Source: an uncultured Bacilli bacterium (GTDB taxonomy: Bacteria; Bacillota_I; Bacilli_A; RF39; UBA660). From it: a stretch of DNA of 64,000 bases. Shown here piece by piece: positions 1 through 54,182 of this stretch. The notes beneath the pieces are model-generated. The model was not told the origin of the DNA and ran no database searches. It was given only the letters and a program-made list of their open reading frames with translations. The stretch covers positions 34,469 through 98,468 of the forward strand of contig CAKPFM010000004.1 of assembly GCA_934153945.1 (NCBI GenBank), written 5' to 3'. Made by a program: the position numbers and the translations under genes. Position 1 is the stretch's first letter, and every line of letters begins with the position of its first letter.

Positions 1-3000
1 ACCTCTTATACAAGATCCAAATGATGAAGATGTAATTGTGGGTCATAGAATAGAAGAAAGTATAAGTAGATTAGATACACTAGCTTTACCAGGAGGTTCT
101 ATTACAATTGAAGCATATATATTTGGTAAAGATGTAAGAGAAGCAAAATCAGGATTAAAAATAATGTCACTTAAAATAAGTGATAATACAGATAGTATAT
201 ATGGTACTTTATTTATAAGAGATCCTGAAGAATTTAAAATAATTGATAAAAAAATTAAAGTAGGATCATGGTATAAAATAAGAGCAAAAGTAAAAGATAA
301 GGATCAATATTCACAAGATATATCACTACTAATAAATGATATAAATGTTTCTAATAAAGTATTTGAAAAAATAATTGATGATGCTCCAGTAAAAAGAGTA
401 GAATTACATGCTCATACTATGATGAGTCAAATGGATGGAGTAACAAAATTAGACTTAGGTAAACATACATGTGAACTAGTAGAAGAAACAATTCGTATGG
501 GATATAAAGGGGTAGCTATAACAGACCATAGTGGCTGCCAAGCATTCCCTATATCCTTTGGTATAATAAAAAATCATAATAAAAATATTAGAAAAGGTAT
601 TAAATCTAAAATAGAAGAAATAGAAAATAAATTAAATGAAGAAATAGATGAAAATACTAAAAAAGAACTACTAGAAGAACTAAATAAACAAAAAGAATTA
701 GAAAAAAATCCACCTATATTTAAAGGATTATATGGTACAGAATTGACATTAGTAGATGATACTGTAAATATTGTAGTTAGACCTAGTGATGAAGATTTGA
801 TAAATAGTGAATACGTAGTATTTGATACCGAAACAACAGGATTTAATGCCGGTGGAGCCGATCAAATGATTGAAATCGGTGCAGTTAAAATTAAAGAAGG
901 GGAAATAACTGATAGATTTGATGAACTAATCGATCCAAAAAGACATATTCCTGATAAAATAACAGAATTAACTTGTATTACAGATGAAATGGTAAAAGGT
1001 AAAGATGATGAAGAAACTGTAACAAAGAAATTCATAGAATGGGTAGGAAATTTACCTATGGTAGCTCATAATGCTAAATTCGATATTTCATTTATCGAAA
1101 TGGCAATGAAAAAATATAACTTAGGTGAATTTAAAAATACGGTTATTGATACATTAGAATTATCAAGAACACTAGATCAAGGATACGCTAGACATAGTTT
1201 GTCAGCATTAGTAAAAAGATACAATGTACCTTGGGAAGAAGATGCTCACCATAGAGCTGATTACGATGCTGAAGGAACTGCATACGTATTTGCTAAAATG
1301 TTAAAAAAACTAGAATCACAAAAATTTGAAAAAATTAGTGATTTAGATAAATTAGTATCAAAAGAAGAAATATATAAATTTGGTCGTACATATCATTTTA
1401 ATGCTATAGCGCTAAATAAAAAAGGTTTAAAAAATCTATTTGAAATAATCTCTTTAGCGAACACTGTATACATATATAAAACACCTAGAATACTAAGAAG
1501 TAAACTTGAAGAGTTAAGAGAAGGGTTACTAATAGGAAGTGGTTGCTATGAATCAGAAGTATTTACTGAAGCAAGAAGTAAAGAAGGACAAGAATTAACT
1601 AATATAATCAACTTTTATGACTATGTAGAAGTACAACCTCCAGAAGTATATGGTCACTTGTTACAATTAGGTGATTTTAAAGATGAAACAGAACTACAAA
1701 ATCATATCAAAAAAATAATAGATGCAACTGAATCAGCAGGTAAAATCATAGTAGCAACAGGTGATGTGCACCATTTCAAAAAAGAAGATAAAATATATAG
1801 ACAAATTATTGTCAATCAAAAAGTACCAGGAGGAGGAAGACATCCACTTGCTAAAAATGATATAAAAGAAATTCCTTCACAACACTTTAGAACAACTAGA
1901 GAAATGTTAGAAAATTTTAGTTTCTTAGGAACTGATCTAGCATATAAAATAGTAGTAGAAAATACTAATAAAATAGCTGATATGGTAGAAGAAATAGAAG
2001 TAATTCCAGATACAGGTGGAACACCATTCTCACCACGTGTAAAAAGTGATGATGGAACTTGTTATCTAGATTGCCCTAGAGTAGTAACAGACTTAGTATA
2101 CAATAAAGCAAAATTTTGGTATGGTGAACCATTACCACACTCAATAGAAGAGAGAATTGCTACTGAATTATATGGTGATATTGTTTTAAATACAATAAAA
2201 GCTGAATTAAGAGATAAACCTGTTAATAATTTAGAAGAACAAGCTTTTAAAGAATTACATGATGTAATTATTAAAGGATTTGATTCAGTAAAAGAACTAT
2301 TAATTAATCATATGAAAAAAGAAGAACCAGAACTATCAGATGATGAAATAAATAAAAAATTAAAAAAATCATTAGGTGGTGTAATAGGAGCAGGATTTGA
2401 TCCTATATACTTGATAGCTCAAAGACTGGTTAAACACTCAAATGACGAAGGGTTCCTAGTAGGTTCCCGTGGATCTGTTGGATCAAGCTTTGTAGCTACT
2501 TTAATGGGTATAACAGAGGTAAACCCTTTACCAGCACACTATAGATGTAGCGAATGTAAAATTAGTATTTTCGAAGAAAACGGTAAACCTTTAGGAGAAG
2601 ATTATTCATGTGGATTTGATTTACCTGATAAAATGTGTCCTAATTGTAATATACCTTTAATAAAAGATGGTCAAGATATGCCATTCGCAACTTTCCTAGG
2701 ATTTAATGCGGATAAAGTACCGGATATAGATTTAAACTTCTCAGATTTAAATCAAGCAAGTACCCATGCATATACTAAAGTCCTATTTGGAGCTGATAAT
2801 GTTTATAGAGCAGGAACAATTGGTACAGTTGCAGATAAAACAGCCTTTGGTTTTGTAAAAGGATATTGTGAAGATAAAAATATTGTAATGCGTACAGCTG
2901 AAGTAGAAAGATTAGCGCTTGGTTGTACAGGTGTAAAAAGAACTACGGGTCAACACCCAGGAGGAATAGTAGTTATACCTGATTATATGAATTGTTTTGA

Positions 3001-4159
3001 TTTTACACCATTTCAATTCCCAGCAGAAGATCCTAACTCTCCTTGGAGAACAACTCACTTTGATTATCACTCAATAGAAGAGTGCGTATTAAAACTAGAT
3101 ATATTAGGACATTCTGATCCAACTCAATTAAGATTAATTCAATTACAATCTGGAACTGATATTATGAAGGTTCCAATGGATGATAAAGAAACAATGAGTA
3201 TATTTACATCGACAAAAGCATTAGGAGTAACTAAAGAACAAATATTATGTAATACTGGTACATTAGGAATTCCAGAATTTGGTACACCATTTACTATTAA
3301 ATTAGTAGAAGATACAAAACCAACAACTTTTGCGGAATTAGTAAAAATATCAGGTTTATCACATGGTACTGATGTTTGGTTAGGAAATGCTCAAGAATTA
3401 ATTCAAAATAACGTTGTTCCATTTAAAGAAACAATAGGGTGTCGTGACGATATAATGGTTTATTTAATGTATCGTGGACTTGCTCCTATCAAAGCATTCA
3501 AAATAATGGAATTTGTTCGTAAAGGTAAAGCAAGTAAAGATCCAGAAACATGGAAAGAACATGTCAAAACAATGGAAGAAGCAAATATTCCAAAATGGTT
3601 TATAGATTCATGTCAAAAAATAAAATACATGTTCCCAAAAGCTCATGCTGCCGCATATGTAATAAGTGCATTTAGGATAGCTTGGTATAAAGTTCATATG
3701 CCAGTATATTTCTATGCATCATGGTTCTCATCAAAAGCAACAGATGTAGATGTTGAAGTAATGATTAAAGGATATGATGCTATTAAAAATAAGATAATTG
3801 AAATACAAAATAAAGGATATGATGCTACTAATAAAGAACTAGGTCAACTAGAAAGTTTAAAAGTAGCATTAGAAGCAACAGCTAGGGGTATTAAATTTGT
3901 TAATATTGATTTATACAAAAGTGAAGCCAAAGATTGGTTAGTTAAAAGTGATAATGAAATATATCCACCATTTAATTCAATAGATGGACTAGGTGAAGCA
4001 GTTGCTCAAGCTATAGTAGATGAAAGAAATAAAAAAGAATTTATGAGCATCGAAGATGCTTGGAAAAGAAGTAAAATTTCAGCAACCTTAGTTGAAAAAA
4101 TGAGATTTATGGGAATATTTGATGGTATGGATGAATCAAGTCAATTAAGTTTATTTTAG
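1..4159 (+). CDS. polC: DNA polymerase III PolC-type; the 5' end lies upstream of the window
   Basis: The reading frame is open from nt 2 (PLIQDPNDEDVIV...), so the GTG at 38 is only the first in-frame start, not the true start. Contains PHP motif ELHAHT, DEDDh exonuclease motif VVFDTETTG, and Zn-finger CSECK...CPNC. At least 1373 aa. Confidence 0.95.
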   Translation, partial: PLIQDPNDEDVIVGHRIEESISRLDTLALPGGSITIEAYIFGKDVREAKSGLKIMSLKISDNTDSIYGTLFIRDPEEFKIIDKKIKVGSWYKIRAKVKDKDQYSQDISLLINDINVSNKVFEKIIDDAPVKRVELHAHTMMSQMDGVTKLDLGKHTCELVEETIRMGYKGVAITDHSGCQAFPISFGIIKNHNKNIRKGIKSKIEEIENKLNEEIDENTKKELLEELNKQKELEKNPPIFKGLYGTELTLVDDTVNIVVRPSDEDLINSEYVVFDTETTGFNAGGADQMIEIGAVKIKEGEITDRFDELIDPKRHIPDKITELTCITDEMVKGKDDEETVTKKFIEWVGNLPMVAHNAKFDISFIEMAMKKYNLGEFKNTVIDTLELSRTLDQGYARHSLSALVKRYNVPWEEDAHHRADYDAEGTAYVFAKMLKKLESQKFEKISDLDKLVSKEEIYKFGRTYHFNAIALNKKGLKNLFEIISLANTVYIYKTPRILRSKLEELREGLLIGSGCYESEVFTEARSKEGQELTNIINFYDYVEVQPPEVYGHLLQLGDFKDETELQNHIKKIIDATESAGKIIVATGDVHHFKKEDKIYRQIIVNQKVPGGGRHPLAKNDIKEIPSQHFRTTREMLENFSFLGTDLAYKIVVENTNKIADMVEEIEVIPDTGGTPFSPRVKSDDGTCYLDCPRVVTDLVYNKAKFWYGEPLPHSIEERIATELYGDIVLNTIKAELRDKPVNNLEEQAFKELHDVIIKGFDSVKELLINHMKKEEPELSDDEINKKLKKSLGGVIGAGFDPIYLIAQRLVKHSNDEGFLVGSRGSVGSSFVATLMGITEVNPLPAHYRCSECKISIFEENGKPLGEDYSCGFDLPDKMCPNCNIPLIKDGQDMPFATFLGFNADKVPDIDLNFSDLNQASTHAYTKVLFGADNVYRAGTIGTVADKTAFGFVKGYCEDKNIVMRTAEVERLALGCTGVKRTTGQHPGGIVVIPDYMNCFDFTPFQFPAEDPNSPWRTTHFDYHSIEECVLKLDILGHSDPTQLRLIQLQSGTDIMKVPMDDKETMSIFTSTKALGVTKEQILCNTGTLGIPEFGTPFTIKLVEDTKPTTFAELVKISGLSHGTDVWLGNAQELIQNNVVPFKETIGCRDDIMVYLMYRGLAPIKAFKIMEFVRKGKASKDPETWKEHVKTMEEANIPKWFIDSCQKIKYMFPKAHAAAYVISAFRIAWYKVHMPVYFYASWFSSKATDVDVEVMIKGYDAIKNKIIEIQNKGYDATNKELGQLESLKVALEATARGIKFVNIDLYKSEAKDWLVKSDNEIYPPFNSIDGLGEAVAQAIVDERNKKEFMSIEDAWKRSKISATLVEKMRFMGIFDGMDESSQLSLF

Positions 4160-23769: not shown

Positions 23770-23851
23770 GTTAAAATAAAAGTATAAATAGTAAATGAAA
23801 GATTTATAATGATACTAAATTCATTATTTTTATATTGAAAGGGTGTTAATA

Positions 23852-26800
23852 ATGAAAAGAAATGGATTTACGTTGATAGAATTATTAGCTGTTATAGTAA
23901 TATTATCGGTAATATCATTAATAACGATACCAATTGTAACAGGTGTGATAGATACATCAAGAAGAAATAGTTTTAAAGTAACATGTATGGAAATATATGA
24001 TTCATATGATACCTATGTTGTTGCAAATGATTCAATAGGAAAAAATAATTCAAATATTATATTTGATTTTTCAAGTAAAAGGCAAAATACAGAAATAATA
24101 GGGGATATTAAATATGAACCAGTAAGTAAATTGTATTTAAAAGGTGAATTACCTAATAATGGAAAATATCAAATAAAAAATGATAAAAGAACACTAAAAG
24201 CAGATAATGGAAGATATACATGTGTAATTGATGAAAATAGAAGTGAGATATTAGGTGGAACTGTAGAAGAAAATGATACAACAGCTCCAGTAATAAATGA
24301 TGTAGTAATAACAAGTACAACAAATAGTATAAAAGTAGTAGTGGATGCTATAGAAGAAGATGGAGTGATTGCTAAATATTATTATAAATTTAATGGAGAA
24401 GAAATAGTAAGTGAAAATAATAGTAAAACATACACTAATTTAAAAGCAAATGAAGAGTATGAGATAGAAGTAGTAGTAGAAAATAAAAGTGGATTAAAGA
24501 GTAATAAAGTAGTTAAAAAGATAATGACAAAAAGTGTTTCAAATCCAACAATCAAACAGACAGTGCAAACACCAAGTAGTGGATATAGTTATGCACAATC
24601 AAGAACAATTCAAATTACATATAGTAATACAAATGTAAATAGTCCAGTATATTACTTCAAATCAAGTGTAGGAGCAACAGTAGCTAGTGGAGTAGTAACA
24701 GCATCATGTGGAACAGGAACAAATCCAGGAACATGTACAAGTTCAAGTGTAACAACAATAGTAGCTAATACATGGTATAAAACAACAAGTACAACACCAA
24801 GTGTAATATATAAAGCAAATGGAACATTGTATGCGTTAACAAGTGATGGAGCAAATATATCAGGAACAAGTACATTTACAATAAGTAAGATAGATACAAG
24901 TGCCCCAAGTGCAAGCATGAGTGTAGGAAGTATCAAAACAGATAGAGCAACAATAACAGCGACATGTAGTGATGCACAGTCAGGAATAACAAAATATGAA
25001 TATAGTAAAGATAATGGAACAACATGGATAACAAATGGAACAACAAATAGTTATACATTTACAGGCTTAACAAAAGAAACAAGTTATAAATACAAAATAA
25101 GATGTACGAATGGAAGTGGCTTGACAAAAGAAGCAAGTAGTACAAGTAGTACATTAGGATTTACAAATCCAACAATAAAACAAACGAGTCAAACACCAAC
25201 AAGTGGAACATGGGCAACAAGTAGAACAATTCAAATTACATATAGTAATACGAATGTAACAAGTCCAGTATATTACTTCAAATCAAGTGTAGGAGCAACA
25301 GTAGCTAGTGGAGTAGTAACAGCTGCGTGTGGAACAGGAACAAATCCAGGAACATGTACAAGTTCAAATATAACAACATTAGTAGCTAATACATGGTATA
25401 AAACAACAAGTACAACACCAAGTGTAACATATAAAGCAAATGGAACATTGTATGCGTTAACAAGTGATGGAGCAAATATATCAGGAACAAGTACATTTAC
25501 AATAAGTAAGATAGATACAAGTGCCCCAAGTGCAAGCATGAGTGTAGGAAGTATCAAAACAGATAGAGCAACAATAACAGCGACATGTAGTGATGCACAG
25601 TCAGGAATAACAAAATATGAATATAGTAAAGATAATGGAACAACATGGATATCAAATGGAACAACAAATAGTTATACATTTACAGGCTTAACAAAAGAAA
25701 CAAGTTATCAATACAAAATAAGATGTACAAACGGAAGTGGCTTAACAAAAGAAGCAAGTAGTACAAGTAGTACATTAGGATTTACAAATCCAACAATAAA
25801 ACAAACGAGTCAAACACCAAGTAGTGGAACATGGGCAACAAGTAGAACAATTCAAATTACATATAGTAATACAAATGTAAATAGTCCAGTATATTACTTC
25901 AAATCAAGTGTAGGAGCAACAGTAGCTAGTGGAGTAGTAACAGCTGCGTGTGGAACAGGAACAAATCCAGGAACATGTACAAGTTCAAATATAACAACAT
26001 TAGTAGCTAATACATGGTATAAAACAACAAGTACAACACCAAGTGTAATATATAGAGCAAATGGAACATTGTATGCATTAACAAGTGATGGAAAGAATAT
26101 ATCAGGAACAAGTACATTTACAATAAGTAAGATAGATACAAGTGCCCCATCAATATATGCATATTCTGGAACAATGTTATATCAGGATCCATATTTCACT
26201 TTGGGAACTAATAGTACTAGTATTTATAATAATTTAGGAAATGGAACAGTAACAATTACTAGAAAAGAAATGTCAGGAACATATTATGGATATGGAATTG
26301 AAATATCAACAACAGGAACAGCAAGTCCAGGACATGGTGGTTTCACTTTCTATACAGTATCAGCTGCCAATAAGGAACTTATTACAATAATAAATGCGAA
26401 AATACCAGTAGGATATCAAATAAACTGGGCTTCAAATGAAGTAGGTAATGGTGGAGTATTTGAATGGTTAACCAGTCAAGCAGGAACCGGAAATTGGCAA
26501 ACATATATATTTAGATTAAAATGCGGTTCAAGTGGAACATTTGCAACAACAAATTTCTTCTATTTAACAGGTGGATCAACAGCAACAACATCTTCCCCAG
26601 TAACATGGCAAGTCCAATTAGCAACAACAATAGATACAACAAAATATGGAGCAAGTAATTTTATAGTATTTGCAGGAAAAGATACAGAAAGCGGAGTAGC
26701 AGCATTTGGGGTAAATCAAAGTAGTACTACAGAACCATCATGGACAGCAACAAATGTTGGATGGTGGGCAGGTGGATATACATCAAATAGAACATATTAT

Positions 26801-28105
26801 GTATGGATAAAGGATGCACTAGATAATGTAAGTAAAGTACCTGTGACATTAAGTTATATAGATAATGTAACAACTCCAACAGTAACATACAATGGAGGAA
26901 GTAATAGTCATAGTTGGAAGAACAACTATAATATAACATTAACATCAACAGCTACAAGTGGAATACATCATTATGAAGTAGATTGGGATGGAGATGGAAT
27001 AGCAAATCAAACTATAACTAGTAATTTTATACCATGGGATGGATATTCATCATGTAATAATAGATTTAGAGCAGTAAGTAATAATGGTGTAGAAAGCGCT
27101 TGGACAAGTTCTCATGATATCCACATGGATACAAGCGCACCAGGAGCAACAACAATAACGTATAATGGTGGAGCAAATACATGTATATGGAAAAATAACT
27201 ATAATTTGACATTAACGTCAACGGATAATGTAGGAGTTTCATATTATCAAATAGATACAAATAATGATGGAGTGGCAGATACAACAGTAGGAAGTAGTTT
27301 TATTCCAACAAATGGATGGAGTACATGTACTGCAAGATTTAGAGCAGTAGATGGTGCTGGAAATGTTGGACCATGGACAGAAAAGCAACATATCCACATG
27401 GATACAGAAAAACCAGTACATACAAATTGGTGGTGGGGAGAAGTTACTAAAGATGTGGCAAGATTATATGTTCAAGCAACAGATAATGTAGGATTACCAG
27501 CTAATGCAACAACATACGATGGACATAATGCAGGAGTGTACTGTCCAACCTCAACACAAAGTGGCGGATATACAAACTTTGTATGGTTTAAAGGAAATTG
27601 GGACGCGAGTGCAAATGCATATAGATGTGATATAACGCCAAGTACTTTTGGACACTATGGACAAACATATAGAACACATTTATACATATATGATTATGTA
27701 GGAAATGGTGGATACTATAATGCAACATCAGTAAATATACCAACACCTAGTTATGCAGCAACAAATTCAAGTTATGCGGCAACTCCTAATACAACAACTT
27801 ATCCAACACAACCTACTGGAGAAACATATCGTTGTTGTTGGCATATAAGTAGTGCTAATGCATCAAAGAGTCAATGTGCTAGTGATACTATTGTAGATTA
27901 TGAAGATGGAAGTGGAAGATGGGAATGCGATCAATGTAGTACCTGTCCTAGAAAAGCATGTACAAATGGAGGAACGCAAAATGGTGATATTTGTACAAAG
28001 ACTGAATATACATGTCCAAATGGAGGAACTTTAAGTGGAACGACATGTGTCTTATATACATGTCCAAATGGAGGAACCTTAAGTGGAACAACATGTGTCA
28101 AATAA
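23852..28105 (+). CDS. Giant prepilin-type N-terminal domain protein, paralog 2, with FN3-like and tandem repeat modules and a Cys-rich C-terminus
   Basis: ATG at 23852 after an AAGGGTG RBS. MKRNG|FTLIELLAVIVIL. About 1417 aa, very rich in Thr/Ser/Gly/Asn. Confidence 0.8.
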   Translation: MKRNGFTLIELLAVIVILSVISLITIPIVTGVIDTSRRNSFKVTCMEIYDSYDTYVVANDSIGKNNSNIIFDFSSKRQNTEIIGDIKYEPVSKLYLKGELPNNGKYQIKNDKRTLKADNGRYTCVIDENRSEILGGTVEENDTTAPVINDVVITSTTNSIKVVVDAIEEDGVIAKYYYKFNGEEIVSENNSKTYTNLKANEEYEIEVVVENKSGLKSNKVVKKIMTKSVSNPTIKQTVQTPSSGYSYAQSRTIQITYSNTNVNSPVYYFKSSVGATVASGVVTASCGTGTNPGTCTSSSVTTIVANTWYKTTSTTPSVIYKANGTLYALTSDGANISGTSTFTISKIDTSAPSASMSVGSIKTDRATITATCSDAQSGITKYEYSKDNGTTWITNGTTNSYTFTGLTKETSYKYKIRCTNGSGLTKEASSTSSTLGFTNPTIKQTSQTPTSGTWATSRTIQITYSNTNVTSPVYYFKSSVGATVASGVVTAACGTGTNPGTCTSSNITTLVANTWYKTTSTTPSVTYKANGTLYALTSDGANISGTSTFTISKIDTSAPSASMSVGSIKTDRATITATCSDAQSGITKYEYSKDNGTTWISNGTTNSYTFTGLTKETSYQYKIRCTNGSGLTKEASSTSSTLGFTNPTIKQTSQTPSSGTWATSRTIQITYSNTNVNSPVYYFKSSVGATVASGVVTAACGTGTNPGTCTSSNITTLVANTWYKTTSTTPSVIYRANGTLYALTSDGKNISGTSTFTISKIDTSAPSIYAYSGTMLYQDPYFTLGTNSTSIYNNLGNGTVTITRKEMSGTYYGYGIEISTTGTASPGHGGFTFYTVSAANKELITIINAKIPVGYQINWASNEVGNGGVFEWLTSQAGTGNWQTYIFRLKCGSSGTFATTNFFYLTGGSTATTSSPVTWQVQLATTIDTTKYGASNFIVFAGKDTESGVAAFGVNQSSTTEPSWTATNVGWWAGGYTSNRTYYVWIKDALDNVSKVPVTLSYIDNVTTPTVTYNGGSNSHSWKNNYNITLTSTATSGIHHYEVDWDGDGIANQTITSNFIPWDGYSSCNNRFRAVSNNGVESAWTSSHDIHMDTSAPGATTITYNGGANTCIWKNNYNLTLTSTDNVGVSYYQIDTNNDGVADTTVGSSFIPTNGWSTCTARFRAVDGAGNVGPWTEKQHIHMDTEKPVHTNWWWGEVTKDVARLYVQATDNVGLPANATTYDGHNAGVYCPTSTQSGGYTNFVWFKGNWDASANAYRCDITPSTFGHYGQTYRTHLYIYDYVGNGGYYNATSVNIPTPSYAATNSSYAATPNTTTYPTQPTGETYRCCWHISSANASKSQCASDTIVDYEDGSGRWECDQCSTCPRKACTNGGTQNGDICTKTEYTCPNGGTLSGTTCVLYTCPNGGTLSGTTCVK
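24542..26150 (+). repeat. About 2.6 tandem copies of a 621/624-bp near-identical unit inside the CDS
   Basis: Copies start at 24542, 25166 and 25787. The antisense ORFs 24652-24936 and 25273-25557 translate almost identically. Confidence 0.85.
26868..27410 (+). repeat. Two divergent copies of a roughly 270-bp module
   Basis: Repeated TYNGG.N..W.NNYN.TLTST...RFRAV...HMDT pattern. Confidence 0.5.
28004..28096 (+). repeat. Two 45-48-nt direct repeats encoding YTCPNGGTLSGTTCV
   Basis: At the extreme C-terminus; a degenerate third copy lies upstream. Confidence 0.8.
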
Positions 28106-35617: not shown

Positions 35618-35663
35618 GATATTAAAAATGAAGATATAAATGATAAAAAAGGAGATAGATAGT

Positions 35664-36617
35664 ATGAATAATAAATTTAATGAAATTTTAGAAACAAATA
35701 AATTTGTAGTTGATAATGCAAAACATGTTAAAATTAATTATGATAATGTTGATATTTTGATAGATGAATTATTAAAATTTAATAATGTTCATTATTTAAC
35801 TAAAGTTCCTTATAGTGTTTATAAAATGAGTACAAAAAATTTAATTAATTTTTTACTTATATATGATTCAATAGACTTTTCTTTTTGGGGTAATCCTAAA
35901 TGGACAATTGATGCAAATGGAAAAAACTTAGATGGTGGAATGGCACTTTTGCATTGTATATTCAATTTATTTAATGGTCGCGATAGTGAAGAAGTATATG
36001 AACAATTAGAAAATATGTCATTAGATGAATTTAAAAAAATTTTAGAAGGTAATATAGATATTCCTCTTTTAGAAGAAAGATATAGAATTGTTACAAAAAT
36101 AGCAAAAATAGTAAATGTGAAAATGAATGGTAATTTCTATGGATATATTAATGCAATGAATAGTGATCAAGAAATATTTGGTACTATACTAAAGTATTTT
36201 GATAACTTTGAAGATACTAGAACATATGAAGGAAAAACAATATACTTTTATAAATTAGCTCAATTATTAACATCAGATATTCTACATGTAATTGAAAATA
36301 AAGAACAAAAAGACGTGGATTATTCTAATCTTTTAGGTTGTGCAGATTATAAAATACCGCAGGTAATGCATGGATTTGGAATTTTAGAGTATGATGAAGA
36401 ACTGTCTTTATTATTAGATACTAAAACTGAGATTGATGAAAATAGTGAATATGAAGTTGAAATTAGAGCAAGTCAGATTGTAGCAATAAATTATATTTGG
36501 GAGAAGATAGATAAATGTATTGATAGAATTGATATAAATGATTTTATATGGTGTAAAGGACAGGATAAGACTAAGAAATATAAACCTTATCATCTAACTA
36601 GAACAACGTCTTATTAA
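35664..36617 (+). CDS. Hypothetical protein; possibly the queuosine-salvage Qng1/DUF2419 family
   Basis: ATG at 35664 after an AAAGGAGA RBS. ADYKIPQVMHGFGIL resembles the Qng1 signature. Confidence 0.4.
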   Translation: MNNKFNEILETNKFVVDNAKHVKINYDNVDILIDELLKFNNVHYLTKVPYSVYKMSTKNLINFLLIYDSIDFSFWGNPKWTIDANGKNLDGGMALLHCIFNLFNGRDSEEVYEQLENMSLDEFKKILEGNIDIPLLEERYRIVTKIAKIVNVKMNGNFYGYINAMNSDQEIFGTILKYFDNFEDTRTYEGKTIYFYKLAQLLTSDILHVIENKEQKDVDYSNLLGCADYKIPQVMHGFGILEYDEELSLLLDTKTEIDENSEYEVEIRASQIVAINYIWEKIDKCIDRIDINDFIWCKGQDKTKKYKPYHLTRTTSY

Positions 36618-36766: not shown

Positions 36767-36840
36767 TTAGCACTCATATATTGACAATGCTAACATATAA
36801 TACTATAATGTAGATAGCACTTAAGAAGAATAAGTGCTAA
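36767..36840 (+). promoter_or_regulatory. hrcA operon promoter with two CIRCE-like inverted repeats
   Basis: TTGACA (36781-36786), 17 nt, TATAAT (36804-36809). CIRCE-like TTAGCACTC-N9-CAATGCTAA (36767-36793) overlaps the -35. ATAGCACTT-N9-AAGTGCTAA (36814-36840) lies just downstream of the -10. Confidence 0.7.
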
Positions 36841-36851
36841 GAGGTGATTTA

Positions 36852-37853
36852 GTGATTAATAAAAGACAAACAGAAATATTAAAAATGATTGTTGAAGAAT
36901 ATATTAAAACAGCTCGTCCAATAGGTTCTAAAGCTATATGTGAATCATTAAATTGTTCTAGTGCCACAGTAAGAAATGAAATGAGTGAGCTAGAAGATTT
37001 AGGATTACTAGAAAAGACACATATTTCTTCAGGTAGAGTTCCAAGTGAAAAAGGATATAGATATTATGTTGATAATATAATGAAACCAAAAGAATTAACT
37101 GGAGAAGATATGTTAAATCTACAAACAATATTCCAAAATCAATCACTTGCGCTAAGTGACGTAATAATTAAAAGTATGGAAATTGTGTCAGAACTTACAA
37201 ATTATACTTCTATTGTACTAGGTAGTAGTAGTAATCAAAATAAAATAAGTAAAGTAGAAGTAGTACCAATAAGTGAAAAAAATCTAGTCGCAATAGTTAT
37301 AACTGACACAGGTCATGTAGAACATAGAAATATGCAATTGGAAGAAAGAGTTTCATTAAGTGAAATAAAACAAACAGTAGATTTAATAAATAAATTTATA
37401 ATAGGTACACCTCTTAATGAAGTTAGCATGAAGTTAGAATATGAAGTAAAACCTAAAATAGCTTCATCGCTAAAAGAACAACAAGCAATATATGAAGCAT
37501 TATACAATGCATTTAATGAATTTAAAACAGAAGAAGAAAATATGGTAAAGGTAAATAAACCAAGTAATATATTAAGAGAACCAGAATTTGATGATACAAG
37601 TAAAATGCGTTCTATATTGAAAAAGTTTGAAGACAAAGAATTGATCAAAAATATTGAAGAACAAGATAGTGGTATTAATGTTTATATTGGTAGTGAGTCA
37701 GAATTTGATGATGATGTATCAATAATAAAAACAAAATACAATATCGATGGAGAAGAGGGAACTATCGCTTTAATAGGCCCAAAAAGAATGGAATATGATA
37801 GAGTAATGACTCTTCTAAAATATATTAAAGATAATATAGAAGAAAATGAATAA
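36852..37853 (+). CDS. hrcA: Heat-inducible transcription repressor HrcA
   Basis: GTG at 36852 after an AAGAGGTGA RBS. INKRQTEILKMIVEEYIKTARPIGSKAI aligns to the HrcA N-terminus. Confidence 0.9.
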   Translation: MINKRQTEILKMIVEEYIKTARPIGSKAICESLNCSSATVRNEMSELEDLGLLEKTHISSGRVPSEKGYRYYVDNIMKPKELTGEDMLNLQTIFQNQSLALSDVIIKSMEIVSELTNYTSIVLGSSSNQNKISKVEVVPISEKNLVAIVITDTGHVEHRNMQLEERVSLSEIKQTVDLINKFIIGTPLNEVSMKLEYEVKPKIASSLKEQQAIYEALYNAFNEFKTEEENMVKVNKPSNILREPEFDDTSKMRSILKKFEDKELIKNIEEQDSGINVYIGSESEFDDDVSIIKTKYNIDGEEGTIALIGPKRMEYDRVMTLLKYIKDNIEENE

Positions 37854-37889
37854 AATTAATTATTTGAATAATAATTAAATGGAGGTAAC

Positions 37890-38531
37890 ATGGAAGAAAA
37901 AGAAATACATAATGAGGAACAAAATTGTAATTGTGATGAATCATGTGAATGTAAAGATTGCAATTGCAATGAAGCATGTGAATGCAAAGAATGTGAATGT
38001 GATTCATGCAATTGTGATGAATTAGAGCATAAACACGAGAAACATGAAAAACATGATAACAAAAAAATAAAAAAACTAGAAAATAAAATAGATGAATTAG
38101 AAAAAAAACTAAAAGAATCAGAAAATAAAGTCCTTTTAGCAAAAGCAGATTCTATTAATTATAGAAAAAGAAAAGATGAAGATGTAATGCGTATTATGAA
38201 ATATGCAAATGAGGATATTGTAACAGAAATGTTGATAATTATTGATAATTTTGAAAGTGCTATCAAAATGGATGATGATAATTTAGATGATGAAGTTTCT
38301 AAATTTTTATCAGGATTTAAAATGATTTATTGCAATTTAGTTACTGTTTTAGAACGATTTGATGTCAAGGCAATTGATGGAGCCAATAAACCATTTGATC
38401 CAACTTATCATCAGGCAGTTATGACTGAAAAATGTGATATGGCTCCTGGTATGGTAATAGAAGTCCTTAGAAAAGGATATATATTAAAAGATAAAGTAAT
38501 TAGACCAGCTATGGTCAAAGTTAGTGAATAA
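37890..38531 (+). CDS. grpE: Nucleotide exchange factor GrpE with a Cys/His-rich N-terminal extension
   Basis: C-terminal GrpE core. Residues 13-45 read NCNCDESCECKDCNCNEACECKECECDSCNCDE, followed by HKHEKHEKH. Confidence 0.9.
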   Translation: MEEKEIHNEEQNCNCDESCECKDCNCNEACECKECECDSCNCDELEHKHEKHEKHDNKKIKKLENKIDELEKKLKESENKVLLAKADSINYRKRKDEDVMRIMKYANEDIVTEMLIIIDNFESAIKMDDDNLDDEVSKFLSGFKMIYCNLVTVLERFDVKAIDGANKPFDPTYHQAVMTEKCDMAPGMVIEVLRKGYILKDKVIRPAMVKVSE

Positions 38532-38546
38532 GGAAAGGTGATAAAT

Positions 38547-40370
38547 ATGAGTAAAATAATAGGTATTGATTTAGGTACAACAAATAGTTGTGTTGCTGTA
38601 CATGAAGGTGGAGAAACAAAAGTAATTGCAAATGCAGAAGGAAATCGTACAACTCCATCTGTAGTAGCATTTGGAAAAGATGGAGAAATCATTGTTGGTT
38701 TGAAAGCTAAAAATCAAATGATTACAAATCCAAATGTTGTATATTCTATAAAAAGAGATATGGGAACTGACAAAAAAGTTCATATCAATGGTAAGGATTA
38801 TACACCACAAGAAATTTCAGCAATGATTTTAAGTGATTTAAAGAAAACAGCAGAAGATTATTTAGGAGAAAAAGTAACAAAAGCAGTTATTACTGTTCCT
38901 GCTTACTTTAATGATTCACAAAGACAAGCTACAAAAGATGCAGGTAAAATTGCAGGACTTGAAGTAGAAAGAATTATCAATGAACCAACAGCTGCAGCTT
39001 TAGCTTATGGCCTTGATAAACAAGATAAAAATGAAAAAGTTCTTGTATATGATTTAGGTGGAGGTACATTTGATGTATCCATTCTAGAACTTGGTGATGG
39101 TGTATTTGAAGTATTATCAACTAGTGGTAACAACCATTTAGGTGGTGATGATTTTGATCAAAGAATTATGGATTATTTAGTTAATGAATTTAAACGTGAG
39201 AATGGTATCGACTTGTCTAATGATAAAATGGCTATGCAAAGAGTAAAAGATGCTGCTGAAAAAGCTAAAAAAGACTTAAGTGGTATGACTTCAACAGAAG
39301 TATCTATTCCATTTATTACACAAAGCGAAGCAGGACCATTACACTTATCTGTTACTTTGACAAGAGCAAAATTTGAAGATTTAATTGGCGATTTATTAGA
39401 TTCTACTTTAGAACCAGTAAGAAAAGCATTAAAAGATGCTAATTTAACTAAAAATGATATTGATAAAGTATTATTAGTTGGTGGATCTACACGTATTCCA
39501 AAAGTAGTAGATTTAATAAAAAATGAATTAGGAAAAGAACCATCAAAAGGAGTAAATCCTGATGAAGTAGTTGCTATGGGAGCTGCTATTCAAGGTGGTG
39601 TATTAACAGGTGAAGTAGAAGATATAGTTTTACTAGATGTAACACCATTATCACTTGGTATTGAAACTTTAGGAAATGTAATGACAGTGTTAATTCCAAG
39701 AAATACAACAATTCCAACAAGTAAATCACAAGTATTCTCAACAGCTGCAGATAATCAACCTGCTGTAGACATTCATGTATTACAAGGTGAAAGAACAATG
39801 GCTGCAGATAACAAAACTTTAGGAAGATTCCAATTAACAAATATTCCTGCTGCTCCTAGAGGGGTTCCACAAATTGAAGTTACATTTGATATAGATGCCA
39901 ATGGTATTGTTAATGTAAAAGCTAAAGATTTAGGAACTAGTAAAGAACAATCTATCACAATTACTTCTTCAACTAACTTAAGTGATGAAGAAATTGATAA
40001 AATGGTAAAAGAAGCAGAAGCAAATAGAGCTGCTGATGAAAAACGTAAAGAAGAAGCAGATACTAAAAATGAAGCAGAACAAATGATATTTACTTGTGAA
40101 AAATCATTAAAAGATTTAGGAGATAAAATATCAGATTCTGAAAAGAAAGAAGCAGAAGAACAAATTAAAGATTTAAAAGATGCTCTAGAAAAAGATAACT
40201 TAGAAGATATTAAAACTAAAAAAGATAAATTACAAGAAACAGCTTATAAATTTGCTGCTAAAGTATATGAAGAAGCATCTAAAAATGCTCAAACTGAAGA
40301 AAATAAAGAAACATCAAATGATAAAAAAGATGATGATGTTATTGATGCAGAATTCGAAGAAGGTAAATAA
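38547..40370 (+). CDS. dnaK: Chaperone DnaK
   Basis: [22 protein letters not shown]. 607 aa from the ATG at 38547. Confidence 0.97.
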
Positions 40371-40374
40371 TATA

Positions 40375-40398
40375 GAAGTTCTAGGTGACTAGGACTTC
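40375..40398 (+). other. Strong 10-bp hairpin (GTGA loop) right after dnaK, with no U-run
   Basis: gaagttctag-gtga-ctaggacttc with one G-U pair. May be an mRNA stability or processing element. Confidence 0.4.
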
Positions 40399-40420
40399 TC
40401 ACTTTAATAAAGGAGAATAT

Positions 40421-42208
40421 ATGGAAAAACAAAAACTAAGAGATGAAGTAAGTAATGATTATAAATGGGATTTAACAAAAATATATAAAACAGACGAAGA
40501 ATGGAATAATGATTATCAAAAATTAGAAAGTGAAATAACAAAGATAAAAGACTATACTAATTTTATAGAAAGTTCAGAAAATTTATATAAGTTTTTAACT
40601 TTTAATGAAAAGATAGAAAGATTATTAAATAAATTATATTACTATGCACATTTAAACTTTGATGTTGATACTTTAAATGATAAATATCAAGAAATGAATC
40701 AAAAAATGGTAGATATGTTAGACTATTTTAATGAACTTACTTCATTTGTTATTCCAACATTTTTAAAAATAGATTATAGCAAAATACAACAATATATAAA
40801 TGAATTACCATCTTTAAAAGAATATGAATTTACTCTAGAACAAATATATAGAGAAAAAGAGCATACATTAGATGAAGAAAAAGAACATATGCTGGCACTT
40901 CTAGGTAAAAATTTATCAAATCCAGGATCTACATTTGAAGCACTAACAGATTCAGATTTAACGTTTGGTAATATAACAGTAGATGGTAAAGAAGTAGAAT
41001 TAACTGAAAGTAATTATGGAAAATATATTTCTTCATTTGATAGAGATATAAGAAAAAAAGTATTTGAAAGATTATTTACAACCTATAGCAATTTTAAAAC
41101 AACTATAACTTCAATATATAATGGAGATATAGATGCCAATATAAGTGTAGCTAAAATAAGAAATTTTAATAGTGCATTAGAAGCCTCTTTATATAATGAT
41201 AATATAGAAAAAACAGTATATGAAAATTTAATTAAAACAGTACATAATAATTTAAATGTTTTATATGATTATTATGATTTAAAGAAAAAAGTTTTAAATT
41301 TAGATGAATTACATATATATGATATTTATACACCAATGATTAAAGTTGATAAACAAGATTATAGTTTTGAAGAAGCTAAAAATTTAGTATTAGATACAAT
41401 AAGTATATTTGGTGAAGAATATAAAGAAAATGCATTAAAAGCATTCAATGAAAAATGGATTGATGTATATAATAATAAAGGTAAAAGATCAGGAGCATAT
41501 TCTTCAGGATTCTATGATACAGCGCCTTATATGTTATTAAATTTTGAAAATAGAATAAATGATGTATTTACTTTAGCTCATGAATTAGGTCATTCAATGC
41601 ATACTTATTTTTCTTGTAAAAATAATTCATATAATAATTCAGGCTATAAAATTTTTGTAGCTGAGGTTGCTTCAACAGTAAATGAATTATTACTAGCAAA
41701 AAACTTATTAAAAAAATCTAATTCAAAAGAAGAAAAATTAAATATATTAAATAGATTATTGGAATTATTTAAATCAACTATATATAGACAAACTATGTTT
41801 GCTGAATTTGAAAAGAAAATATATGAATTAAGAGAAAGTGGTAATGTTTTAACAAGTGAAACAATTTGTAAAGAATATTATGAATTAAATAAACTATATT
41901 TTGGTAATAATGTAGTAGTAGATGATTTAATTAAATATGAATGGGAAAGAATACCACATTTCTATTATAATTTCTATGTATATAAATATGCTACTGGGTT
42001 ATCAGCTGCATGTTATATAGTAAAAAATATACTAGATAATAAAGGAAATGCTAAAGAAAACTATTTAAAATTCTTAAAATCAGGTGGAAGCATGTATCCT
42101 TTGGATGAGCTTAAATTAGCTGGTGTAGATATGAATAAGCCTGAAGTAGTAGAGAGTGCTATAAGCATGTTTAAGGAAACAATAGAAGAATTTAAAACAT
42201 TAATTTAA
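40421..42208 (+). CDS. pepF: Oligoendopeptidase F (M3B family)
   Basis: ATG at 40421 after an AAAGGAGA RBS. Zinc motif HELGHSMH. About 595 aa. Confidence 0.85.
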
Positions 42209-42212
42209 GGAA

Positions 42213-43328
42213 GTGAGTTTAATGAATAAACGTGATTATTATGAAGTTTTAGGAGTAGATAAAAATGCTAGTGAAGCAGATATCAAATCGGCTTTCCGTA
42301 AACTAGCTAAAAAATATCACCCTGATGTATCTAAAGAACCAGATGCAGCAGAAAAATTTAAAGAAGCGCAAGAAGCTTATGCCGTTTTATCTGATAAAGA
42401 TAAAAGAGCTCAATATGATCAATATGGTCATGCAGCATTCCAAAATGCTAATGGTGGAGCAGGATACGATTTTAGTGGATTTGATTTTTCTGATATATTT
42501 AGTGATATCTTTGGTGGATCTTTTGGAGGATTCAGTGGATTTTCTAATTTTGGATTTGGTTCATCTTCTAAAGCAAGAAAAGGTAGTGATACTTTAGTTA
42601 GAATGAATCTAACTTTTGAAGAAGCTTGTTTTGGATGCAAAAAAAGTGTTGAAATCAATGAATCAAAAACTTGTACTGAATGTAGTGGAAAAGGTGGATT
42701 TGGAGAAAAAACTTGCCCAGATTGTAATGGAAAAGGTCAAGTAACTCAATCTGTATTTGGTGGTGCTTTTGTAAGCAGAACAACTTGTTCAAGATGTTCT
42801 GGTACAGGACATGTATTTGAAAACAAATGTAGTACTTGTAGAGGAACAGGAACTATTAATGAAAGAAAAACAAAAGATGTTAAAGTTCCAGCAGGAGTAG
42901 ATACAGGTAATAGATTAAGAGTACCAAATGCCGGTAATCCAGGAAGTAATGGAGGACCAAATGGAGATTTATACATTGAATTTAATGTAAAAGAACATCC
43001 AATATTTAAAAGAGAAGAAAATGATATTTATTTAACTTTACCAATATCTATAACAGATGCAGTATTAGGTGCTAAAGTAGATGTTCCAACTTTATATGGT
43101 AATGTTAAACTAACTATTCCTGCAGGTAGTTCATCAAATGATAAACATCGTTTAAAAGGTAAAGGAATAGAGGATGTAAGAACAGGTAGAATAGGAGATA
43201 TGTATGTTGTATTAGATATATATGTACCTAAAAAATTATCAAGAGATCAAAAGAAATTATTTGAAGAATTAAGTAAAACTGATTTATCTAATAGTTCTGA
43301 CTTTGATAAAATTAAAAAATATTTATAA
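42213..43328 (+). CDS. dnaJ: Chaperone DnaJ
   Basis: J-domain with HPD, G/F-rich region, and four CxxCxGxG zinc-finger repeats. Confidence 0.95.
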
Positions 43329-51993: not shown

Positions 51994-52034
51994 TTAGCAC
52001 TCATACTTGACAAGTGCTAAAATAGTGGTATAAT
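51994..52034 (+). promoter_or_regulatory. clpB promoter overlapped by a CIRCE element
   Basis: TTAGCACTC-N9-AAGTGCTAA (51994-52020). TTGACA (52007-52012) lies inside the inverted repeat, then 16 nt, then TATAAT (52029-52034). Confidence 0.65.
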
Positions 52035-52073: not shown

Positions 52074-54182
52074 ATGAATATAGGAAATATTTATGATAAT
52101 CAAGAAGAAGATGTTTTAAGTAAATATGGACGTAATATTATAGAACTTGCTAAAGCGGGGAAAATTGATCCAGTTATTGGTAGGGATGAAGAAATAAGAA
52201 GTATTACAAGAGTTTTATCCCGTAAAACAAAAAATAATCCAGTACTAATAGGTGAAGCTGGAGTAGGTAAAACCGCTATAGTAGAAGGTTTAGCTTTACG
52301 TATCGTAAAAGGTGATGTACCAGAATCATTAAAAAATAAAACAATCTGGGAACTAGATATGGGTGCTTTAATAGCAGGAGCTAAATATAGAGGAGAATTT
52401 GAAGAAAGACTAAAAGCAGTACTAAAGAAAATAAAAGAATCAGATGGTAATATCATTATGTTTATTGATGAAATCCACATGATTGTTGGAAATAGTGCTG
52501 AAGGTAGTGTAGATACATCAAATATGTTAAAACCACTTCTAGCTAGGGGTGAAATAAAAGTAATTGGTGCTACCACATTAAATGAATATAGAAAATACAT
52601 AGAAAAAGATAGTGCTCTAGAAAGAAGATTTGAAAGAGTATTAGTAAATGCTCCAAGTGTTGAAGATACTATTACAATTTTAAGAGGTTTAAAACCAAGA
52701 TTTGAATTATTCCATGGAGTAACTATTAAAGATAAAGCATTAATAGCAGCAGCAACTTTATCAGATAGATATATAACAGATAGATTTTTACCAGATAAAG
52801 CAATTGATTTAGTAGATGAAGCTTGTGCTACTATAAAAGTTCAAATGGATTCAGTACCTTTTGAACTAGATAGTTTAACAAGAAAAATAATGGGACTTGA
52901 AATAGAATTAGAGGCAATCAAAAAAGATAAAGATGAAATGTCTAAAAAAAGAGTTTTAGCTATAAAAGATGAAGTAGCTATTTTAAGAAAAAAAGAACAA
53001 GAATTAAAAGGATCTTGGGAAGAAGAAAAGAAATTAAAAGAAACAATTAATAAAAAGAAAGATGAATTAGAAAGAAATAAGTTTTTACTTGAACAAGCTG
53101 AAAATAATTATGATTTAGAAACAGCAGCTCGTATTAAACATGGTGTAATACCTACTTTAGAACAAGAATTAGAAAATTTGAAAAAACAAGATAATTATAA
53201 ATTATTAAGTGATTCAGTAACAGAAGAAGATATAGCAAAAGTAATATCTAAAATGACAAATATTCCAATTCAAAAATTAGTAGGTGGAGAAAGAGAAAAA
53301 TTATTACATTTAAAAGAAAACATGGAAAAAAGAGTAATGGGTCAAGATGAAGCTATAAGTAAAGTAAGTTCAGCTATAATAAGAGCAAGAGCAGGTATTA
53401 AAGATCCAAATAGACCAATTGGTTCATTTATCTTTTTAGGTCCAACTGGAGTAGGTAAAACAGAAGTAGCTAAGACACTAGCAAGCGAACTATTTGATGA
53501 TGAAAGACACATTATAAGAATTGATATGAGTGAATACATGGAAGCTTACAATGTTTCAAGATTAATTGGTGCTCCTCCAGGATATGTAGGATATGATGAA
53601 GGTGGACAATTAACTGAAAAAGTAAGAAGAAATCCATATAGTATAGTTTTGTTTGATGAAATAGAAAAAGCCCATCCAGATGTATTTAATATATTGTTAC
53701 AAATACTAGATGATGGTAGAATAACTGATTCACAAGGTAGAACAGTAGACTTTAAAAATACGATTATTATAATGACATCTAATTTAGGTAGTGAATATAT
53801 TTTAGATAATAAAGAAAATAGTAATGAATTAGTAATGAATGAATTAAAACATACATTTAAACCAGAATTTATAAATCGTATAGATGAAATAATTATATTT
53901 AATCCATTAGCTAAAAAAGTAGTTTATAATATTGTTGATAAATTATTAAATGAATTAGAATTAAGATTAAAAGATAAATTAATTAAAATAGATATAACTG
54001 ATAAAGCTAAAGACTTTATTGTAGATAATGCTTATGATGAATCATTTGGTGCTAGACCTATAAAAAGATATATTGTAAGTAATATCGAAAACTTAATTGC
54101 AAGTAAAATAATTAATGATGAAATTAAATATAATAGTACTATTTTAATAGATATAGAAAATGATAAATTCATAATAAAATAA
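52074..54182 (+). CDS. clpB: ClpB-type AAA+ disaggregase lacking the N-terminal domain
   Basis: Two Walker A motifs ([18 protein letters not shown]), a long coiled-coil M-domain, and no ClpP-docking IGF loop. 702 aa, starting where canonical ClpB NBD1 begins. Confidence 0.8.

Follow-up and report, generated by a model that had tools for sequence, protein, structure and literature searches.

A cysteine- and histidine-rich N-terminal tail of GrpE in uncultured gut Bacilli: a putative metal-binding module on a heat-shock co-chaperone

Introduction

In an uncultured Bacilli bacterium, the co-chaperone GrpE carries ahead of its conserved core an N-terminal tail with 12 cysteines in 33 residues, which, judging from its composition and from the way it changes among relatives, probably binds metal ions. 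The tail characterises a large clade of RF39-like gut Bacilli, uncultured and with reduced genomes, and essentially all of the species have kept it. The grpE gene in question lies in a 64,000-nucleotide stretch of contig CAKPFM010000004.1 (assembly GCA_934153945.1, positions 34,469 to 98,468), which is called the window here and to which all coordinates below refer; the grpE operon and its regulatory elements lie on its plus strand. GrpE is among the most studied bacterial co-chaperones. A preliminary description of the window had presented the Cys-rich extension as a curiosity of a single gene, but the feature turned out to belong to the whole clade, being present in 75 of 76 species. RF39, an order of Bacilli, has been described as prevalent and uncultivated, its genomes being highly reduced and its auxotrophies numerous (PMC6784871).

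The literature searched, which included GrpE in combination with metallothionein or zinc as well as bacterial metallothionein-chaperone fusions and was covered incompletely, yielded no description of GrpE tails rich in Cys or His. A 2025 review of GrpE-like factors mentions neither "zinc" nor "metal". The protein is a standard co-chaperone with a new accessory module, and metal-binding tails on chaperones are already precedented as a principle.

Anatomy of the GrpE Tail

The grpE gene occupies positions 37890..38531, stop codon included, and encodes a protein of 213 amino acids that begins MEEKEIHNEEQNCNCDESCECKDCNCNEACECKECECDSCNCDELEHKHEKHEKHDNKK. Residues 50-213 match the Pfam family GrpE (PF01025) with an E-value of 4e-46 and a score of 157 bits, compared to a cut-off of 25.8, over profile positions 3-165 of 165; by this family profile together with the operon context, the product is a true GrpE. 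The GrpE chains in the PDB that match it are 4ANI, 1DKG, 3A6M, and 8GB3, with E-values from 9e-33 to 1e-6, and the closest solved structure is the Geobacillus kaustophilus GrpE (4ANI, 9e-33), for which the alignment runs from residue 59.

The part of the protein ahead of the core reads MEEKEIHNEEQN-CNCDESCECKDCNCNEACECKECECDSCNCDE-LE-HKHEKHEKH-DNKK. It opens with an acidic cap (residues 1-12, 37890..37925), in which the only hydrophobic residue, I6, stands between acidic residues. The cap is followed by a Cys-rich module (residues 13-45, 37926..38024), a putative metal-thiolate site composed of about three 11-residue (33-nt) repeats. Its 12 cysteines, at positions 13, 15, 19, 21, 24, 26, 30, 32, 35, 37, 40, and 42, form six CxC pairs with 2-3 residues between pairs and make up ~36% of the module; the remaining residues are 7 E, 4 D, 5 N, 2 K, 2 S, and 1 A, and none is aromatic. 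A (KHE)3 stretch, HKHEKHEKH, comes next (residues 47-55, 38028..38054) and is kept in close relatives. The preliminary description had placed both the Cys-rich extension and the His stretch exactly here, and the sequence agrees with it in each case. The core (residues 56-213, 38055..38528) then comprises a Lys-rich linker, a long helical stalk, a helical bundle, and a β-wing.

The Cys density of the module stands far outside the background of the window. Among the other 44 long open reading frames (ORFs), Cys amounts to 1.05% of residues, and at this frequency a 33-residue stretch would contain at least 12 Cys with a probability of ~5e-16. No more than 6 Cys are found in the next densest stretches of this length among the window proteins, which are the zinc finger of DnaJ and the C-terminus of the ORF that starts at 23843.

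At the DNA level, Tandem Repeats Finder (TRF) detects a 33-nt period at 37920-37990 (2.2 copies, 82% matches, score 100) and a 9-nt repeat of 2.9 copies in the HKHEKHEKH stretch. A repeat search of the tail DNA yields 31-33-nt copies of 71-82% identity at spacings of 33 and 15 nt, and the string TGTGAATGYAAAGA occurs twice, at 37944 and 37977. The two periods bear out the earlier proposal that the extension arose by expansion of short repeats.

AlphaFold2 (AF2), run as a monomer on a 118-sequence alignment and producing models in which metals are not represented, gives residues 1-48 a predicted local distance difference test (pLDDT) score below 50 with no secondary structure. The long helix begins at residue 45, so that the HKHEKHEKH stretch is predicted to form the first turns of the stalk. 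On this model, the N-terminal ~58 residues are predicted to be an intrinsically disordered, ligand-rich tail on an otherwise ordinary GrpE. The disordered tail had been described at the outset as a thermosensor; this does not hold, because in bacterial GrpE temperature is sensed by the long α-helical stalk (PMC12987570).

Translation of the Tail

A Shine-Dalgarno sequence, GGAGGT, can be read from the sequence at 37881..37886, 3 nt upstream of the grpE ATG. Within the first 100 codons, an in-frame ATG, GTG, or TTG is found only at codon 1 and codon 100, and the latter lies inside the conserved core, beyond the NYRKRK motif. Because the Shine-Dalgarno sequence is strong and there is no other in-frame start before codon 100, the tail must be translated, and an alternative start downstream is ruled out by the same lack of start codons.

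The tail would be an artefact if the true start of GrpE lay downstream or if the repeats had been mis-assembled, and low-complexity repeats are indeed error-prone in short-read assemblies. However, besides the consensus Shine-Dalgarno sequence in front of codon 1, the identical protein is present on 64 contigs, and five independent assemblies, one of them from a Hadza gut metagenome, carry DNA identical to the window over the whole grpE gene. The frame is also open through the tail in ~200 homologues from AT-rich genomes. An artefact is therefore barely credible, and the sequencing error that the preliminary description had allowed for is ruled out by the identical DNA of the five assemblies.

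Distribution among Related Species

A scan of one genome per GTDB species gave 80 loci, all from uncultured gut metagenome-assembled genomes (MAGs) that are titled Bacilli, Bacillales, Tenericutes, or Mycoplasmatota, a few bins being evidently mislabelled. Among them are Acholeplasma sp. CAG:878, Ca. Pelethosoma (in the NCBI lineage, Mycoplasmatota incertae sedis), Ca. Faecisoma, and two closed genomes of ~1.2 Mb; we take these MAG groups to be the GTDB order RF39. The window species is absent from the representatives, the best of which has a GrpE 79% identical to that of the window.

When the GrpE ORFs of the 80 loci were rebuilt with GTG and TTG starts allowed, 76 full-length proteins of distinct related species were obtained, with tails of 20-104 residues (median 60) and a median Cys+His content of 23%. 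Cys-dominant tails, the type to which the window GrpE belongs, account for 53 of the 76. Mixed tails in which His equals or exceeds Cys occur in 16, for example as HEHKHEECKCHEHHEHKH repeats in L058 and L065, and His/Pro-only tails with 0 Cys and 20-23 His in six (e.g., L060 and L075). A single species (L031) has a tail rich in neither residue.

The Cys-free tails include those of one subclade (L035, L060, L064, L075, and L078) with 20-23 His and many Pro, as in HPHHEHEKHHEHHEEHKHHPHEEHGPHEHHEHPRPPHEKHH. These five tails apparently begin at GTG or TTG codons, and gene calls made from the first ATG would miss them entirely.

The best 120 database homologues, which extend down to ~55% identity, all have 6-25 Cys in their first 80 residues, and several additionally have 12-16 His. 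To avoid bias from the tail itself, the core alone was also searched against 1.84 billion cluster representatives. Among the full-length matches, tails with at least 15% Cys+His were found in 5/5 clusters at core identities of at least 55%, in 3/6 at 50-55%, in 2/14 at 45-50%, in 2/47 at 40-45%, and in 1/28 below 40%; the trait thus fades below ~50% core identity. In 88 distant GrpEs, the tails are E/K-rich as usual, with a median Cys+His content of 0%. The most extreme tail, that of P0148 on a metagenomic contig of 3.3 kb, has 39 Cys in 133 residues arranged in near-perfect CEDGKCTCEDCECECG-type repeats, and over all homologues surveyed the tails range from 20 to 133 residues.

Some Cys- or His-rich tails (P0139, P0239, P0190, P0235, P0260, P0195, and P0247) occur at just 40-47% core identity. 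Part of these differ in style, with CCC and CC clusters (EEGCCCNHEH...CCGGGCCH), and their sequences hint at independent origins in other lineages.

Evolution of the Tail

Changes within the species were examined by comparing the window DNA with alleles P0005, P0006, and P0007 (L086-L088), whose cores are identical to that of the window or differ in one residue. Relative to the window, the 58-codon tail of the three alleles has 3-4 synonymous changes, 4-6 nonsynonymous changes, and 0-8 indel codons, while the 155-codon core has 1 synonymous and 0-1 nonsynonymous changes. P0007 has an 18-nt insertion that duplicates, in tandem, the neighbouring TGT AAT TGT GAT GAA TCA (CNCDES) unit. All 12 Cys are kept in each of the three alleles. 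TGT<->TGC exchanges make up 3 of the 6 unique synonymous tail changes among these alleles, and the numbers of synonymous and nonsynonymous changes are 3/0 at Cys codons and 3/7 at the other codons, which is no more than suggestive (Fisher-type one-sided p ~0.07, calculated by hand).

A sister species carries 10-18 Cys on near-identical cores by means of whole-unit indels. Two expectations raised from the window alone can be evaluated with these data. The number of repeat units does vary between strains where the core is identical or one residue different, and across related genomes the extension is not missing in any strain or relative that has an identical core.

Over the clade as a whole, the sequence and length of the tail turn over fast through gain and loss of CxCxxx units and the tails can no longer be aligned, while the ligand density, measured as Cys+His content, is kept. 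What the tails share is a grammar of tandem CxC-x(2-4) units, in which CxC accounts for 49% and Cx3C for 22% of neighbouring Cys pairs; CxCx3CxC is found in 102/120 homologues. The Cys count ranges from 0 to 39 across homologues with no conserved positions. The composition of the clade tails is E 22%, C 18.5%, K 15.5%, D 8%, N 8%, H 8%, Y 0.3%, and F 0.2%, with aromatic and hydrophobic residues nearly absent. When the cores are arranged in a neighbour-joining tree, tails that are mixed or rich in His turn up in several separate positions, and over the tree the Cys-rich, mixed, and His-only types replace one another.

The few hydrophobic residues are 3-fold enriched at positions 2-10 of the homologous tails (7.9% vs 2.7%). 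As this is just a weak positional enrichment of single hydrophobics, a conserved IIM-like DnaK-binding motif in the cap is retained with low confidence.

Metal Binding and Alternative Explanations

On balance, it appears probable from the sequences that the tail binds metal. Metal coordination is favoured over disulfide chemistry or neutral drift because Cys and His, which are both metal ligands, replace each other, whereas other residues do not take their place. In addition, the appearance of His-rich and mixed tails at separate places in the tree is expected if ligand density is under selection and is unexpected for a disulfide switch. The ions concerned would be soft or borderline metals. 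All-Cys, Cys/His, and all-His sites can each accommodate Zn(II), which would for this reason be the most parsimonious candidate; the ion might also be Ni(II), Co(II), or Cu(I). By analogy with the established Cys:metal ratios of metallothionein domains, the 12 Cys of one chain would hold ~4 divalent ions, and a GrpE dimer would hold double that number. The disorder predicted by AF2 for residues 1-48 matches the disorder of apo-metallothioneins.

Among the roles that such a tail could play, we infer by analogy that a stress-inducible metal buffer or store ranks first. This role is proposed because grpE is expressed from an HrcA/CIRCE heat-shock operon: the pool of GrpE ligands would rise under proteotoxic stress, which is itself caused by thiol-reactive metals, and the tail could sequester those metals that cause misfolding. 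Two Zn proteins expressed from the same operon, DnaJ and PepF, could possibly also receive their Zn from the tail.

As a secondary option, the Cys module, which separates the cap from the stalk, might collapse on binding metal, alter the reach of the tail into the substrate-binding domain (SBD) of DnaK, and thereby tune substrate release. In E. coli, a small hydrophobic motif flanked by acidic residues in the GrpE tail transiently binds the SBD of DnaK and promotes substrate release (PMC12915176). The Ile6 motif of the cap may, with low confidence, be a counterpart of this canonical motif. A regulatory gate, in which metal loading or oxidation-driven release would fold or unfold the module and so tune DnaK substrate release by Zn/Ni/Cu status, is a tentative and rather doubtful proposal.

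Several observations count against a selected metal-binding tail or against one of its possible roles. Single Cys-to-Tyr losses are present in alleles P0004 and P0013. Synonymous change is elevated in the tail too, so that part of its variability is mutational, reflecting repeat instability, and not selective. L031 lost the Cys/His tail yet kept GrpE, and the tail is therefore dispensable for core function. Any hydrophobic residue at positions 2-10 is found in only 66% of tails, which makes the idea of an SBD tether weak. Taken alone, the tail matches no Pfam family at E<=10, metal-binding families included, and the only PDB chains that align with it, the mammalian MT-1/MT-2 β-domains, do so at non-significant E-values of 0.5-7. 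In favour of the metal-binding reading, by contrast, is the specificity to GrpE: in neighbourhoods of ~12 kb at the 80 loci and in the one 64-kb window, with 1197 ORFs between them, a density of at least 6 Cys per 30 residues is confined to GrpE, spurious antisense ORFs, and a single large protein.

The main chemical alternative is that the tail acts as a thiol redox switch or sacrificial thiol buffer, which in these oxygen-sensitive anaerobes of the gut would be oxidised to disulfides, possibly releasing Zn as do Hsp33 and the Ruc protein of M. tuberculosis, and would either change GrpE activity or absorb oxidants and electrophiles. Twelve closely spaced thiols are compatible with such chemistry, for which the disulfide at Cys87 of vertebrate GrpEL2 and the Met oxidation of yeast Mge1 are precedents (PMC12987570), as is a mycobacterial Zn-ribbon redox chaperone working with DnaK (PMC7448276). 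Moreover, uncultured gut species, most clearly RF39, are reported to be depleted in oxidative-stress protection functions (PMC6784871). It is nevertheless unlikely that redox sensing explains the tail. Metal ligation is favoured over it because related species replace Cys with His, to the extent that six have 20-23 His with no Cys at all and that in 16 His is at least as frequent as Cys, and His forms no disulfides but binds metals. The number of Cys is also variable and without fixed positions, unlike the conserved Cys4 centres of Hsp33 and Ruc. The redox and metal readings are not exclusive, since a Zn-thiolate cluster is also redox-labile.

A role more specific than that of a general buffer is improbable too, whether as a dedicated metallochaperone for a specific enzyme, as SlyD and HspA are for [NiFe]-hydrogenase, or as an Fe-S or structural Zn domain for protein-protein contact. 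The mixed HEHKHEECKCHEHHEHKH tails of L058 and L065 do resemble HspA and Hpn in their His/Cys composition, and deletion of the HspA tail specifically impairs hydrogenase maturation (PMC3856676). However, no Ni enzymes or accessory genes were seen in the scanned regions of the window, and a domain of fixed fold is hard to reconcile with lengths of 20-133 residues, a variable number of units, and the disorder predicted by AF2; nor does the tail contain CxxCxGxG or another known finger motif. Quite improbable, in turn, is a neutral origin, by which slippage-prone TGT/GAA/AAA-rich repeats would drift in a tolerant disordered tail with functionless Cys and His. The tail does consist of tandem 15-33-nt units and is a hotspot for synonymous and nonsynonymous change and for whole-unit indels, in a genome of ~25% GC in which all tail codons are AT-rich, and one lineage (L031) lacks the feature. 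Against drift, the feature is kept in 75/76 species even though the cores have diverged to ~50-60% identity and the tails are unalignable. Cys makes up 1% of the proteome compared to 18.5% of the tails, an 18-fold difference, whereas Tyr (0.3%) and Phe (0.2%) are rare in the tails although both are single-step AT-biased products of TGT. In more distant relatives, the canonical tails are rich in E and K and their median Cys+His content is 0%, and where switches occur, they go from Cys to His, which is another metal ligand, and not to arbitrary residues.

Comparison with Known Systems

The closest architectural parallel to the putative metal-binding GrpE tail is HspA, the GroES of Helicobacter pylori, whose His/Cys extension binds Ni and serves to store and sequester it; when the extension is deleted, cells contain less Ni, are more sensitive to it, and are impaired in hydrogenase maturation (PMC3856676). 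Both proteins are essential heat-shock co-chaperones of ordinary fold that bear a short, lineage-restricted, His/Cys-rich terminal appendage dispensable for chaperone function, and mixed tails such as HEHKHEECKCHEH... in related GrpEs have a composition similar to that of the HspA tail. They differ in that the appendage is C-terminal and the partner is GroEL/ES in HspA, whereas GrpE has an N-terminal tail and works with DnaK. The HspA tail is short and found in one genus, while the GrpE tails reach 20-133 residues, are mostly Cys-dominant with tandem CxC, are hypervariable in length, and extend over a whole order-level clade. In carrying a lineage-restricted, His/Cys-rich terminal extension on a heat-shock co-chaperone, the window GrpE is of the HspA type, as an analogue and not a homologue.

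With metallothioneins (MTs) such as the vertebrate MT β-domain, SmtA/BmtA, and MymT, the tail shares the CxC/Cx3C spacing, the absence of aromatic residues, and a predicted disordered apo form. The high Cys content in CxC/CxxC arrangement without aromatics, by which metallothioneins are operationally recognised, is thus present, but a small free-standing protein is not, as the module is the N-terminus of a 213-residue GrpE. It further differs from metallothioneins in being fused to a folded protein of 155 residues, in being strongly acidic through its E/D/N spacers, and in having a variable number of units. The label "metallothionein-like" given in the preliminary description can be retained for the Cys pattern, since the 7 Cys of residues 24-40 are in register with those of the MT-1/MT-2 β-domain. 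It does not extend to family membership, as the tail alone belongs to no metallothionein family (e.g., PF00131 or PF02069) at the Pfam threshold given above. Homology to vertebrate MT was rejected and the register regarded as convergence or coincidence, because the MT-β skeleton occurs in 4/120 homologues, all of them alleles of the window species. Judged by sequence, the tail resembles metallothioneins in its composition and class of motifs and HspA in its architecture, and is homologous to neither.

Compared to the canonical GrpE tail (residues 1-33 in E. coli), the window tail has the same position before the stalk, is likewise disordered and Glu-rich, and keeps an acidic cap with one Ile (EEKEIHNEE); the difference is the 33-residue Cys module and the His stretch that lie between the cap and the stalk. 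GrpEL2 (Cys87), Mge1 (Met155), Hsp33, and Ruc convey environmental chemical input to the Hsp70 system via sulfur chemistry (PMC12987570), as the tail may do. In these proteins, the input acts on a single conserved residue or on a Cys4 Zn site that is fixed, in either case within a folded region, whereas the GrpE tail is variable, disordered, and His-replaceable; with 0 to 39 Cys and no conserved positions, the homologues have no fixed Cys4 site of the Hsp33/Ruc type.

Other metal-binding elements of the chaperone machinery are less similar. The DnaJ zinc finger (PF00684, with four CxxCxGxG motifs) is a metal-binding Cys element as well, but it has a conserved fold and fixed motifs, is normal in the window operon, and finds no counterpart in the tail, which lacks CxxCxGxG and any PF00684 match. 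SlyD has a metal-binding His/Cys C-terminal tail, which is disordered and variable; however, SlyD is a peptidyl-prolyl isomerase and not an Hsp70 co-chaperone.

Operon and Surrounding Genes

The gene order in the window is hrcA-grpE-dnaK-pepF-dnaJ, with CIRCE-like operators upstream of hrcA, and it recurs in 73/80 related loci, the remaining loci being interrupted by contig ends. The classical Firmicute operon hrcA-grpE-dnaK-dnaJ is not known to contain the pepF-like gene. The first operator, at 36767..36793, reads TTAGCACTC-N9-caATGCTAA and has 2 mismatches to the consensus of CIRCE (controlling inverted repeat of chaperone expression). The second, at 36814..36840, has 3 mismatches and overlaps the earliest possible start of hrcA. 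In total, 3 CIRCE matches are found in the window against 0.03 expected.

The heat-shock repressor gene hrcA extends over 36834..37853 (Pfam HrcA, 1.6e-49, and HrcA_DNA-bdg). Its first possible start, the GTG at 36834, falls within the second CIRCE-like element (36814-36840), and on public contigs with an identical grpE, hrcA is called from the equivalent of 36852, 18 nt downstream, giving 333 residues. Downstream of grpE, dnaK (38547..40370, Pfam HSP70) encodes 607 residues from the ATG at 38547; the mechanically defined ORF begins at GTG 38538, and on the contigs with an identical grpE the dnaK start lies 16 nt past the grpE stop. The pepF-like gene for an M3 zinc oligopeptidase (40385..42208; Peptidase_M3, 8.7e-78, and Peptidase_M3_N) is located between dnaK and dnaJ, and dnaJ itself (42213..43328) has the DnaJ, DnaJ_CXXCXGXG, and DnaJ_C families, the second being the canonical CxxCxGxG zinc-finger domain.

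Some further features of the window may be recorded. A queuosine-salvage gene (Pfam Q_salvage, 35640-36617) lies between spoVG and hrcA and is present also in L081; it is absent from this place in L082-L084, which have an identical grpE and in which spoVG ends 128 nt before hrcA. From these sequences, its presence or absence is a strain-level insertion or deletion. The best CIRCE match of the window (51994-52020, 1 mismatch) precedes a 702-residue double-AAA+ ATPase of the ClpB/ClpC type (52074-54182), and ~65 nt upstream of this match there is a skipping-rope RNA (RF02924, 51829-51929; 39.3 bits compared to a gathering score of 36.7). Two very large ORFs are found at 23843-28105 (1420 residues) and 38-4159 (1373 residues). 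The block that contains the former has a GC content of 0.33 vs ~0.24 around it, and the ORF ends in a Cys-containing segment, CDQCSTCPRKACTNGGTQNGDICTKTEYTC.

Conclusions

The number of repeat units in the GrpE tail is hypervariable between strains and could possibly be used to tell strains apart. Should the tail bind metal, GrpE would join Helicobacter HspA as the second heat-shock co-chaperone with an additional role as a metal store or buffer, in a much wider range of species. The tail would also be the first candidate for a metallothionein-like function in gut bacteria of the RF39 type, which are common in humans but uncultured and have reduced genomes. The Cys-only, mixed, and His-only tails would then form a natural set for asking whether a disordered GrpE tail signals chemically to DnaK. 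Should the tail prove to be a regulatory gate, it would represent a new type of input into the bacterial Hsp70 system, besides thermosensing by the stalk, across a whole order of reduced-genome gut bacteria.

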